Sequence record: PZ256263.1
Length of the DNA: 64,000 bases
Strand: one strand, 5' to 3'
From: a phage
Below the pieces are notes generated by a model, which was given only the letters and a program-made list of their open reading frames with translations, was not told where the DNA came from and ran no database searches. The position numbers and the translations under genes were made by a program. This document shows, piece after piece, positions 20,259 to 22,368 of the stretch (within the stretch, counting starts at the first letter, position 1; the number at the start of each line of letters is the position of its first letter).

Positions 20259-20337
20259 TCAATGGGTGCCTCTGGTAAAGGGGCACAATTTAAAGGTTAA
20301 TTAGATGAAAGGGTTTACCCTTCAGGTGGATTAGAAA

Positions 20338-22368
20338 ATTTGTGGCATCGTATTAGCTGGCGGTAATCTGTCAAGCACTGATTTAGACGTATTCAACCAA
20401 CTCTTTTATGCTGGAGTATTCCGAGGACAGCACTCCTCTGGTATCTTTGGTCAGCGTAAGAGCACTAAGGAAGTCTTCACTTATAAAGAGGCACTTCCTT
20501 CTTTCGCATTCATCCTTCAAGATGAGTACAAGAAACACACCACTGGTGAAACAGCTTACACTGTAGCACCTTCATGGATTGTTGGTCACAGCCGTCATGC
20601 AACGAAAGGTGCAGTTAACGCCAAGAACGCCCATCCTTTCCAACATGGTAACATCACTCTGGTTCATAACGGAACCTTGATGGACCAAGATCTGTTACCT
20701 GACAGCAAAAACTTCGAGGTAGACAGTGAGAACATCTGCCACTCTATTAACACTATTGGTGCAGCAGAGACTATTCAAAAGCTGGATGGTGCTTTCACCT
20801 TAATCTGGCATGATGCTTCTGATAACCGTCTTCATATCATCCGTAACGAAGAGCGTCCATTCCACCTCGCACGTTGTAACAGGGATTGGTTTGGTGCTTC
20901 TGAAGAAGACATGTTGATGTGGATTCTAAAGCGTTCTAAGTCTCACAAAAACCGAATTGATGAGCACTTTGAATGTAAAGTTGGTACAGAATATATCTTT
21001 GATATGTCAAACAACAGCATGACTCTAGTTGAAGAGGTCGCCCACGAGCTTCCGGTTTTTACGGTAATCAATCGTTGGGGCAATTACTACTCGAACAACT
21101 ACAGCCAAAGCAGCTATCAAAGTTCCTCAAAAAGCAGTACAAGCAATCCTTACGACACGAAGCCGGGAGTGACAGCGGCAGACGTTCGTCGAAGAAACGC
21201 AGTGGTAAGTCAAAACAAAATCGCAAGCGATCGAAACATTGACATTCGCCGCGACATGACTGTGGAAATCACACCACATGAGTTTGTTCCTTATGCAACT
21301 GCTGGTGCTGTTCCTTCTCGTGGTAAGATGATCGGTTATATCTACGATGAGAAGTCTCAAGAGTATATCGAAGGTGATGTTCATAACGTAGACATTAAGG
21401 CTTATCAGGATGCCCTGAAAGACCCTAAAATCGTTTACCGTGGGACAGTATCCTGCATCTCCGAAGTTAATGCTATGGTTCGTTTAGTGATCACAGCAGG
21501 TCGTTTTGTTGACCCATCTCTGGAGAAAAAGGAGCCTGAGTCTACTACTGCTGACTTCGATGATGATATCCCTTTTGACATGAATGATAGTTTCGTCAAT
21601 AAGAATGGCGTTACTATCACTCGTAAATTCTGGGAAGCACACTCTCACGGGGATTGTGGTGGTTGTGACAAACATATTGATTGGAAGGATGCACCTAAAG
21701 CAGTCTTCGCATATCAATGCTACTGGCACCCTGAATGTCTGGAAGGTTTGACTAAACCTAAAGATGAAGAAGAGGAGGAAACTCCTATTGGTGTTTGTGA
21801 AATCTGCGGTGAAGTTAAAACAGAGAATGAGTTCGATGAAGAGCTTAGTCGTCTTCGTGGTGAAGATATCTGTAAAGTCTGCGCTGTAGATGTAAAGAAG
21901 AAAGTGTCTAATGCTACGATCAAAGATGGTTATGTCTGGATTAAAGCAACAGATACAACAAACGCCCGTCGTCCTGAATTTGCTTTACGTGTAACTGAAG
22001 ATATGATTGGTCGTATGACTGTATTACCTTCCTCAGCGAAACAGACAGGCATCACTCTGGAGGATGTTGTTGATGCTTATGTTGAGAAACGTAGCAACAG
22101 TATTTTTGCAATCTCAACTAAGCCAAAAAAGGAGGAACCTGCTGAGAAAGCAGGTGTGTTTCCTGAATCACGAACAGCTCTCCGCAAAACTGTTGTCAGC
22201 TTCGACGGAAACCGAAGCACTGACTTCACCAAAGCCATGTGGTCAACCCTCGGATACTGCTCAGAGTGTTTTAAGCAGATTCCGTGGCGCGATGCTGAAA
22301 GTTGTACGCTTGGTTCTATGAATCAAGTTTATTGTAATTCTCCTAAATGTTCATTGAATAGAGGTTAA
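20338..22368 (+). CDS. Class-II (Ntn-type) glutamine amidotransferase domain fused to a C-terminal multi-Cys zinc-ribbon region; apparent ATT start
   Basis: Reading frame upstream of track ORF 20677 encodes CGIVLAGG ... RGQHSSGI ... GHSRHATKG ... NAHPF ... LVHNGTL, GlmS/PurF/AsnB-like. Cys codon TGT at 20341 is preceded by ATT (20338) with AGGTGGA 8 nt upstream and an in-frame TAG at 20332. C-terminal half has several CxxC pairs. Confidence 0.6.
   Translation: MCGIVLAGGNLSSTDLDVFNQLFYAGVFRGQHSSGIFGQRKSTKEVFTYKEALPSFAFILQDEYKKHTTGETAYTVAPSWIVGHSRHATKGAVNAKNAHPFQHGNITLVHNGTLMDQDLLPDSKNFEVDSENICHSINTIGAAETIQKLDGAFTLIWHDASDNRLHIIRNEERPFHLARCNRDWFGASEEDMLMWILKRSKSHKNRIDEHFECKVGTEYIFDMSNNSMTLVEEVAHELPVFTVINRWGNYYSNNYSQSSYQSSSKSSTSNPYDTKPGVTAADVRRRNAVVSQNKIASDRNIDIRRDMTVEITPHEFVPYATAGAVPSRGKMIGYIYDEKSQEYIEGDVHNVDIKAYQDALKDPKIVYRGTVSCISEVNAMVRLVITAGRFVDPSLEKKEPESTTADFDDDIPFDMNDSFVNKNGVTITRKFWEAHSHGDCGGCDKHIDWKDAPKAVFAYQCYWHPECLEGLTKPKDEEEEETPIGVCEICGEVKTENEFDEELSRLRGEDICKVCAVDVKKKVSNATIKDGYVWIKATDTTNARRPEFALRVTEDMIGRMTVLPSSAKQTGITLEDVVDAYVEKRSNSIFAISTKPKKEEPAEKAGVFPESRTALRKTVVSFDGNRSTDFTKAMWSTLGYCSECFKQIPWRDAESCTLGSMNQVYCNSPKCSLNRG

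Follow-up and report, generated by a model that had tools for sequence, protein, structure and literature searches.

How does a gene begin translation when the codon in front of its catalytic first residue is ATT? This question is raised by a glutamine amidotransferase gene of a phage, which we analysed in a stretch of 64,000 nucleotides of the sequence record PZ256263.1 (hereafter, the window). The coding sequence (CDS) comprises 676 codons (20338..22368; this and all features below are on the plus strand) and encodes an N-terminal class-II glutamine amidotransferase (GATase) domain and a C-terminal region of ~430 amino acids with four CxxC motifs. The codon of the catalytic Cys1 of this N-terminal nucleophile (Ntn) amidotransferase (TGT, 20341..20343) follows an ATT (20338..20340), the putative initiation codon. 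An earlier note, drawn from the sequence alone, had proposed either AUU initiation or reinitiation after an in-frame mini open reading frame (mini-ORF) of nine codons, both setting expression deliberately low, and had kept a sequencing error as the trivial alternative. The features on which it relied lie where it had placed them: the mini-ORF (ATG 20305, MKGFTLQVD, TAG 20332-20334), the ATT 20338, the TGT 20341 and the ensuing GIVLAGG. From comparisons of sequences, we conclude that the amidotransferase is very probably translated by direct initiation at AUU 20338, dependent on a Shine-Dalgarno (SD) element and followed by removal of the formyl-methionine. The evidence on its leader points to an evolutionary origin by insertion of a homing endonuclease rather than to deliberately low expression, and an AUU start combined with a leader that is the scar of an endonuclease cassette is the best explanation we have, and a likely one.

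The first step is to establish that the codons following the ATT are translated. Sequence identity assigns the window to a phiEco32-like Kuravirus: over positions 19900-21100, it matches Escherichia phage ev_rybdy3 at 100% identity and many Kuravirus (phiEco32-like) phages at 95-98%, and the amidotransferase is the orthologue of phiEco32 gp83. Its frame runs without a stop from 20335 up to the TAA at 22366-22368. The first in-frame ATG, GTG or TTG codons are TTG 20677, 113 codons past the ATT, and ATG 20680; among the ORFs of at least 150 codons in the window, the amidotransferase alone has a start-less 5' extension of more than 100 codons. Compared with Nieuwekanaalvirus and Suseptimavirus, these 113 codons show dN/dS of 0.06-0.09 at dS of 1.6-2.8, and no genome has a stop in them, a pattern that identifies the extension as coding and under strong purifying selection. 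When the 676-residue protein is read from the ATT, Pfam GATase_6 matches residues 76-176 (E 1e-14) and GATase_7 also matches (E 4e-6), both above the cut-off, and the phrog_4736 profile aligns from its position 2. Alignment with GlmS and PurF supports an N-terminal class-II GATase domain. Residues C1, G2, R28, G29, R85, N110, G111 and D128 are invariant in 13 diverse homologues. The position of Cys1 and the Arg/Asn-Gly/Asp signature thus identify the protein as a class-II (Ntn) glutamine amidotransferase, and its mature N-terminal peptide, with Cys1 first, is predicted to be CGIVLAGGNLSSTDLDVFNQLFYAGVFR.

These results bear on the simplest alternative, in which the true start is ATG 20680, the 113 upstream codons are a decaying remnant, and the product lacks glutaminase activity. 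This start was the choice of gene callers in ev_rybdy3, Paul and NJ01, and the proteomics table of phage SU10 gives gp85 a mass of 63.8 kDa, which is that predicted for the truncated model. Yet the three records omit 114 codons (20338..20679) that evolve at the low dN/dS given above and contain no stop in any genome. The catalytic residues are all invariant, and the glutamine-binding Arg (HSRHATKG) and the oxyanion Asn-Gly (LVHNG), as placed by the alignment with Escherichia coli GlmS (1xff), are both encoded upstream of 20680. A protein starting at this ATG (residue 115) would have its GATase domain split, because GATase_6 spans residues 76-176. We regard a start at 20680 as extremely improbable.

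What precedes the Cys codon is a compact and strikingly conserved leader. Its 5' part, TTAAAGGTTAATTAG (20290..20304), includes an SD-like AAAGG (20292-20296) 8 nt before the mini-ORF ATG, in agreement with the claim that the mini-ORF has its own ribosome-binding site (RBS). The letters then read ATG AAA GGG TTT ACC CTT CAG GTG GAT TAG AAA ATT TGT GGC ATC GTA. The mini-ORF (20305..20334; MKGFTLQVD*) is in frame with the amidotransferase; its ATG (20305-20307) opens ATGAAAGGGTTTACCCTTCAGGTGGATTAG, and between its TAG (20332-20334) and the TGT there are only AAA (20335-20337) and ATT (20338-20340), hence no canonical in-frame start. Centroid and minimum free energy folds both give a hairpin at 20306..20324 (UGA-A-AGGG / UUUA / CCCU-UCA), with a core AAGGG-TTTA-CCCTT, three outer pairs and about -6 kcal/mol. 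It pairs the UG of the mini-ORF AUG, and its 3' end is the first base of the SD that serves the ATT, AGGTGGA (20324..20330; anti-SD duplex -5.9 kcal/mol). The earlier note had identified this SD correctly and had placed it 8 nt from the ATT; the spacer, TTAGAAA (20331..20337), is of 7 nt. The fold of the whole leader has a z-score of 0.11: global structure is ordinary, and the local hairpin alone stands out. We also observed a direct repeat, ATTAGA (20300-20305 and 20330-20335), flanking the hairpin and the SD; the 24 nt between the copies, together with one copy, resemble an insertion, yet this does not look like a simple target-site duplication, because taking them out would leave no SD.

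In the mechanism we propose, the 30S subunit would bind the SD AGGUGGA at 20324-20330 and the initiator tRNA would read the AUU seven nucleotides downstream. The nascent fMet-Cys-Gly-Ile-Val... would then be deformylated and methionine aminopeptidase would remove the Met, exposing the Cys1 nucleophile. The hairpin 5' of the SD probably keeps it both exposed and insulated from upstream RNA; alternatively, it may do only one of the two, or it may stabilise the RNA.

The leader is conserved far beyond the window. Its 62 nt (20288-20349) are found in 99 phage records, 69 at 99% identity or more, 28 at 95-99% and two entries of Aeromonas phage BUCT695 at 92%, and the ATT is conserved in all of them. 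From TTAAAGG to the ATT (about 52 nt) there are no substitutions across Kuravirus, Nieuwekanaalvirus and Suseptimavirus, while dS reaches 1.6-2.8 in the adjacent gene; synonymous changes between the three genera begin at the second codon of the amidotransferase. In BUCT695, the 41 nt from ATTAGATG to the ATT have two differences, one in a loop base and one in the central base of the SD (GGUGG to GGCGG), and the TTTAAATGTAAT segment further 5' also differs from the phiEco32-like leader. This pattern fits a functional hairpin and SD. Such invariance across genera with saturated synonymous sites excludes a sequencing error as the cause of the ATT. The earlier note had added that orthologues with an ATG one base away would suggest such an error: distant orthologues do have ATG-TGT, but what separates them from this locus is the replacement of a ~27-nt segment and not a one-base change.

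Is the ATT a peculiarity of phiEco32-like phages? We compared the codon before Cys1 in 76 distinct homologues, gathered by a profile-based scan of IMG/VR and from other loci (cited by their L numbers where needed). It is ATG in 52, ATT in 19 (8 of which are phiEco32-like), ATC in 4, and TTG in 1. Homologues in cultured phages number 315. ATT and ATC starts occur in about a quarter of the phage homologue lineages, and the ~16 non-ATG lineages include the cultured Vibrio phage VPp1 (ATT) and Pseudomonas phage O4 (ATC). More distant homologues with ATG-TGT are found in GAP52, 7-11, LAh_9, PaP3, HP1 and many uncultured contigs. Lineages without ATG are polyphyletic and have ATG-bearing closest relatives: the protein of L039 and L043 (ATT) is 100% identical to that of L041 (ATG), L118 is closest to L098 (ATG, 84%) and L075 to L077 (ATG, 60%). 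BUCT695 is nearest to GAP52 and 7-11 (ATG, 60-63%) and not to phiEco32 (53%), despite its phiEco32-type leader.

In 12 of the 13 non-ATG lineages that we checked, the frame from the nearest upstream stop to Cys1 is devoid of canonical starts. The position and the type of this stop vary, and neither read-through nor coupling to an upstream ORF is therefore the common mechanism; judged by these alignments, the common denominator is initiation at AUU or AUC. Together with the ATT-TGT of the 99 records, this strongly supports the first proposal of the earlier note. Propeptide processing is known for some Ntn amidotransferases, and read-through of the TAG would yield MKGFTLQVDxKI-CGIV..., with a 12-residue propeptide removed autocatalytically in the style of Bacillus subtilis PurF. 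The mini-ORF is indeed in frame with the amidotransferase, and in L067 an uninterrupted frame leads to Cys1 from an ATG 12 codons upstream. This scheme would nevertheless demand efficient UAG suppression in wild-type hosts, and in the window the in-frame TAG at 20332-20334 breaks any continuous ORF from an upstream start to the Cys codon. Other lineages show TAA, TGA or TAG at differing distances and no in-frame upstream start (in L123, a TAA directly precedes the ATT), and the propeptide sequence is not conserved. Read-through is highly improbable.

Almost all ATT/ATC lineages share a module composed of a hairpin, an SD, 5-7 nt, AT[T/C] and TGTGG. The distance from SD to start, measured on the anti-SD duplex, is 7 nt in every ATT context and ranges from 3 to 9 nt in ATG contexts; read by eye, the SD-ATT spacer of VPp1 is 6 nt. 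Perfectly paired stems of 5 bp or more, with a 3' end 14-16 nt ahead of the start and directly 5' of the SD, are present in 13/17 non-ATG and in 2/53 ATG contexts (Fisher 5e-9, phylogeny being ignored). We rejected the idea that a stronger SD compensates for the weak codon, as SD strength is the same in the two groups (p = 0.98). The junctions just before Cys1 fall into families: GGAGGATTAGAAAATT (phiEco32, BUCT695, L045/L119, L039, L043), a family (b) with AGGAGATGAGAAAAT[T/C] (L067, L070, L099 and, roughly, L123), AAAGGTAGGAACCYAAAATT (L079, L118), and AGGAGGATAG... (L068, L075). They are much more alike than the adjoining coding sequences. For example, GGATTAGAAAATT+TGTGG is identical in L039, L043 and L045/L119, which also have the spacer of the window, and their proteins are 33-36% identical to the window protein. 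As a separate observation, the endonuclease gene of L039 (positions 88-100 of that locus; see below) starts with ATGAGAAATTT and junction family (b) reads ATGAGAAAATTTGTGG in L067/L070/L099; this likeness may be coincidental, or it may be the scar of a deletion that joined the start of an endonuclease to the Cys codon.

The family comparison also bears on reinitiation, the second proposal of the earlier note. Ribosomes would translate the mini-ORF, melt the hairpin, stop at UAG 20332-20334 and restart at the AUU 3 nt further on, held by the internal SD AGGUGGA, and amidotransferase output would track translation of the mini-ORF. This mini-ORF has its own start and SD-like AAAGG, contains the second SD within its 3' end, and is kept with its in-frame stop and 3-nt gap in all 99 records. 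Furthermore, the endonuclease ORF of L039 ends at the same TAG, and ATG-start genes of the family are usually tightly coupled to the upstream gene (gaps of -1 to +3 nt). However, the other ATT/ATC lineages lack an equivalent mini-ORF or an in-frame stop at that position, or any ORF ending near the start (gaps of 16 to >100 nt): the upstream ORF is absent in L068, L070, L099, VPp1, O4 and even in L045/L119, where the spacer is identical and there is no real upstream ORF in that frame. The mini-ORF is present in all phiEco32-like phages; in BUCT695 it reads MKGLTLQAD*, with two non-synonymous changes and without an SD. The hairpin sequesters part of its AUG, and this ATG was inherited from a non-start position of the ancestral leader. 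Reinitiation hence fails as a general mechanism, and we consider it unlikely even as a contributor in the phiEco32 lineage.

If direct initiation at AUU is the rule in these lineages, how did the rare codon come to stand there so often? Pairs of closely related genomes are informative. In two loci from soil metagenomes, L041 and L043, the flanks are ~99% identical and L043 has a clean insertion of 355 nt exactly between the ATG and the TGT. It carries an HNH_3+AP2 ORF that uses the original ATG (ATG TGG ATG GAT...), and its right end reads ...TGA GCAGGAGGATTAGAAAATT. L039, of the same phage lineage as L043, has a different HNH gene (phrog_374, E 6e-64) and the same 19-nt right junction. The Vibrio phages VpJYP1 (ATG) and VPp1 (ATT) also have flanks that are ~99% identical, and differ by a clean insertion of 464 nt between ATG and TGT. 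This insertion contains, in order, an orphaned ATG GTA TAG, an HNH ORF (protein AII27524; 54% identical to the endonuclease of L111), TAA, the hairpin CCCAGcgtgCTGGG, AAGGTGA, ACCGTT and ATT. In VPp1 (L136, positions 233-250), the orphaned native ATG forms a two-codon ORF and the endonuclease ATG lies 3 nt past its TAG, which suggests that ribosomes reach the endonuclease by reinitiation, having entered at the captured RBS. Precise insertion at ATG|TGT is thus shown in two natural allele pairs; this presence/absence polymorphism was observed in other lineages, and none within Kuravirus.

The association extends to other loci. HNH_3 genes lie directly upstream in L076 and L111 (ATC). L079 retains a 32-residue helix-turn-helix remnant, and L118, of the same junction family, retains nothing. 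In BUCT695, two pieces of a VPp1-like HNH gene adjoin the leader on its 5' side, about 50 nt before the ATT: one is N-terminal (E 3e-9), the other a helix-turn-helix portion in a shifted frame (E 3e-5). Overall, an HNH ORF lies directly upstream in five non-ATG contexts, with remnants in two more, and in none of the 48 distinct ATG contexts, 34 of which have an Amidoligase_2 gene upstream. At least three HNH lineages use the ATG|TGT site. In the L041/L043 and L143/L136 pairs and in L039, the sequence downstream of Cys1 first diverges at +9, by the same synonymous T-to-C (Ile3, ATT to ATC). The C is in the endonuclease-carrying allele, and the window also has ATC there. This position may be part of the endonuclease target or of an immunity site.

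We propose that an HNH cassette inserts between the native ATG and the Cys codon of a phage Ntn-amidotransferase gene, whereby the endonuclease would capture the native RBS and ATG and the amidotransferase would be left with a cassette-borne RBS and an ATT or ATC. In the phiEco32 lineage, the endonuclease ORF would later have been deleted from the left, possibly between the native SD AAAGGG and the 5' arm of the cassette hairpin, and the right end of the cassette kept. The comparison with ATG-start relatives is consistent with this history. Positions 20290-20304 are homologous to their TTTAAATGTAAAT-AGA leader; the layout is TAGATGAAAGGA-TTTTTAGT-ATG-TGT in GAP52 and TAGATGAAAGGG-TTTACCCTTCAGGTGGATTAGAAA-ATT-TGT in phiEco32. 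The two leaders are shared up to the ancestral SD AAAGG(A/G), after which 27 nt stand in place of 11 nt that include the ATG. Apart from one mismatch at the central SD base, the final 18 nt of this replacement agree with the right ends of the L039 and L043 insertions. When the junctions are compared (cAGGTGGATTAGAAAATT+TGTGG in the window, cAGGAGGATTAGAAAATT+TGTGG in L039/L043), the window's cAGGtGGATTAGAAAATT+TGTGG matches the insertions at 22 of 23 nt, and the proteins are about 35% identical. In the GAP52 leader (TAGATGAAAGGA), the homologue of the mini-ORF ATG is not a start codon, and the mini-ORF would accordingly be an accidental by-product of the replacement. Based on these junctions and on the analogy with the allele pairs, we lean, by a modest margin of confidence, towards the leader of the window being the scar of a homing-endonuclease cassette.

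The same data might be explained without mobility if the module had arisen repeatedly because low expression, sensitive to initiation factor 3 (IF3), is advantageous, endonucleases merely landing beside it. The hairpin-SD-7 nt-AUU module is functionally coherent, AUU and AUC belong to one class of weak start codons, and most non-ATG loci have no endonuclease. Such convergence leaves unexplained why near-identical genome pairs differ as ATG without and ATT with an endonuclease, and one would expect neither a 22/23-nt junction identity between genes encoding ~35% identical proteins nor, in lineages that are not sisters, a leader so nearly identical (about 5 differences in 52 nt). We find it quite improbable. 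Selection could also have acted on the endonuclease scar itself: the change from ATG to ATT or ATC (at -1) and the T-to-C at +9 might together be an immunity polymorphism of a homing system in which HNH endonucleases recognise ATG-TGT-GGA-ATY, the highly conserved start of phage Ntn-amidotransferase genes, and insert at the Met/Cys1 boundary. An allele with the endonuclease, and afterwards its scar, would escape cleavage through having no ATG at its start. This is a tentative idea, which we think rather less probable than the scar origin. If true, the rare start would be kept by selection against endonuclease attack and not for expression tuning, which would help to account for a phiEco32 leader frozen across genera.

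Several observations weigh against the combination of an AUU start with a scar origin. Regarding initiation, AUU is a weak start codon and the SD of the window is only moderate (-5.9 kcal/mol). The mini-ORF with its SD-like AAAGG and a stop 3 nt before the AUU is a textbook arrangement for coupling, kept in every phiEco32-like genome. In SU10, proteomics did detect the protein, and the listed predicted mass fits the truncated gene model, so that N-terminal peptides were probably outside the search space. The invariance of the leader (0/52) exceeds what an SD, a spacer and a start need, which leaves an extra constraint over. Our statistics, including the Fisher test, do not correct for phylogeny. 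Regarding the origin, no endonuclease ORF or remnant stands beside the leader in any phiEco32-like genome examined, and when five endonuclease proteins were compared by tblastn with the 450 nt upstream in the window, in KBNP1711 and in SU7, no convincing match emerged. The best one (E 0.002, in SU7) falls within amidoligase codons, so that a scar is the most that the window can hold. The BUCT695 remnant lies upstream of the whole leader and not at ATG|TGT. For these reasons, the case for the origin is built on junction identity and analogy. A scan of genome contigs with the 18-mer junction returned six chance matches and one phiEco32-like contig binned in a metagenome-assembled genome, and pointed to no source in bacteria or prophages; in IMG/VR, looser leader patterns retrieved the same five phiEco32-like contigs only, and no progenitor with an intact endonuclease.

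Existing annotations are divided on this start. The ATT is already the annotated CDS start in three records, the phiEco32 type record EU330206.1 (phi32_83) and the BASEL records Bas93 and Bas88. Six of the nine related GenBank records that we opened start downstream, at an ATG or GTG (ev_rybdy3, Paul, NJ01, KBNP1711 in RefSeq, SU7 and BUCT695). In the first three, the start equivalent to 20680 costs the protein 114 residues, among them Cys1 and all of the glutamine-binding half; the downstream starts in the other genera omit 9-52 codons. Similarly, the CDSs of KJ936628 (VPp1) and NC_031274 (Pseudomonas phage O4) are annotated 53 and 37 codons past the ATT/ATC-Cys start, and so the deposited proteins lack Cys1. 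A different anomaly is found in Escherichia phage myPSH1131 (L133), which has a 76-nt tandem duplication in the amidotransferase and an 8-nt duplication in the upstream gene. The two would break both frames and are probably errors of assembly in that record; the extra 76 nt, being a duplicated part of the gene, are not an endonuclease.

AUU-initiated bacterial genes have precedents in infC and pcnB of E. coli and ebpA of Enterococcus faecalis (PMC4447247). As in ebpA, the phage gene has a conserved ATT with an SD, and annotators mistook a downstream in-frame ATG (120 bp on for ebpA) for the start; by analogy with the three genes, low and IF3-sensitive initiation may be expected. In contrast to them, the ATT/ATC starts are polyphyletic in about a quarter of one phage gene family, always directly before the catalytic Cys. 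They sit in a hairpin-SD-spacer module and are linked to mobile endonuclease genes, with no autoregulatory logic evident.

The second set of precedents is that of the free-standing homing endonucleases of T-even phages (seg, mob; intronless homing), which are promoter-less intergenic cassettes that use host-gene expression signals (PMC2988022). They show presence/absence polymorphism in close relatives, flanking polymorphisms travel with them, and a hairpin lies upstream of the seg43(25) RBS (PMC2988022). The HNH cassettes described here likewise use host-gene signals and are polymorphic among close relatives. They differ in their exact point of insertion, which separates the start codon of the target gene from its second codon, in capturing the native RBS and ATG, and in restarting the target from a cassette-borne non-AUG codon. 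In Aeromonas phage Aeh1, the HNH gene mobE splits nrdA into two polypeptides, as cited in PMC2988022. As far as that citation describes it, mobE resembles our cases in being an HNH gene in or abutting a conserved enzyme gene and translationally coupled to upstream sequences; unlike nrdA, the amidotransferase is not split, as the point of insertion is the boundary between the initiator and Cys1. AUU starts, free-standing homing endonucleases and the GenBank annotation of the phiEco32 ATT were already known. The literature we could search contained nothing on start-codon capture by homing endonucleases or on AUU starts in these genes. Three features thus seem undescribed in it: the recurrent ATT/ATC starts in one phage enzyme family, the shared hairpin-SD-spacer module, and the insertion of an endonuclease between the initiator and the catalytic Cys codon with capture of the native start.

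The amidotransferase is part of a conserved cluster, in the order COOH-NH2 ligase (17725-18531), a hypothetical gene, Amidoligase_2 (19155-20258, stop TAA 20256-20258), amidotransferase, two small genes and an ATP-grasp gene (22812-24014). The small genes (22371-22604 and 22585-22809) overlap by 20 nt (22585-22604) in different frames, a layout also annotated in related phages. The amidoligase stop is followed by a terminator-like hairpin, GTGCCTCT-GGTAA-AGGGGCAC (20266..20286, -13.9 kcal/mol as RNA), whose letters vary between genera and which is itself kept; a 'terminator' is annotated somewhere within the matched stretch of the record WFI101126. A scan of 19800-20800 for sigma-70 promoters and terminators found nothing on the leader, and an Rfam scan of 20150-20500 (E up to 10) gave only chance-level matches and no riboswitch or frameshift element. 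We examined the AAAUUUG slippery pattern and the codons UUG 20340 and GUG 20342 as signs of frameshifting or bypassing and discarded them, since none enters the Cys frame and stops follow within ~8 codons. The TTTAAATGTAAAT motif (20290-20304 in the window; TTTAAAGGTTAAT in phiEco32-like phages) is conserved in the leaders of L019, L020, 7-11, GAP52 and LAh_9, and in ATG-start relatives it follows a terminator-like hairpin 20-25 nt before the start. The core AATGTA of the gp36 promoter motif of phiEco32, tAATGTATAtA (PMC4281155), is similar to it, but the leader of the window has no match to the whole motif with up to 2 mismatches allowed, and TTTAAAGGTTAAT is thus unsupported as a promoter.

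The protein shares with the class-II Ntn domains of GlmS, PurF and AsnB the Cys1 nucleophile, the Arg, Asn-Gly and Asp motifs and the Pfam GATase_6/7 matches. Unlike them, it has a CxxC-rich C-terminal extension of ~430 amino acids, and its gene belongs to an amidoligase / COOH-NH2 ligase / ATP-grasp cluster. The extension has no Pfam match and contains, in residues ~439-675 (21650-22365), the four CxxC motifs (C439, C486, C511, C640), some with a further Cys pair downstream, which gives them a zinc-ribbon-like look.

Gene callers that ignore ATT and ATC will go on truncating amidotransferases across the family. Cultured material exists, with the Vibrio phages VpJYP1 and VPp1 as a pair and phiEco32 and the BASEL phages in E. 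coli, and if the module supports usable AUU initiation it would be a compact element for studying or engineering translation from weak starts. If the proposed origin is true, this family would offer a clear natural case of a selfish endonuclease that seizes the RBS and the start codon of a host gene and leaves behind a portable restart module (hairpin, SD, AUU/AUC), and it would provide an evolutionary account for a cluster of rare start codons.

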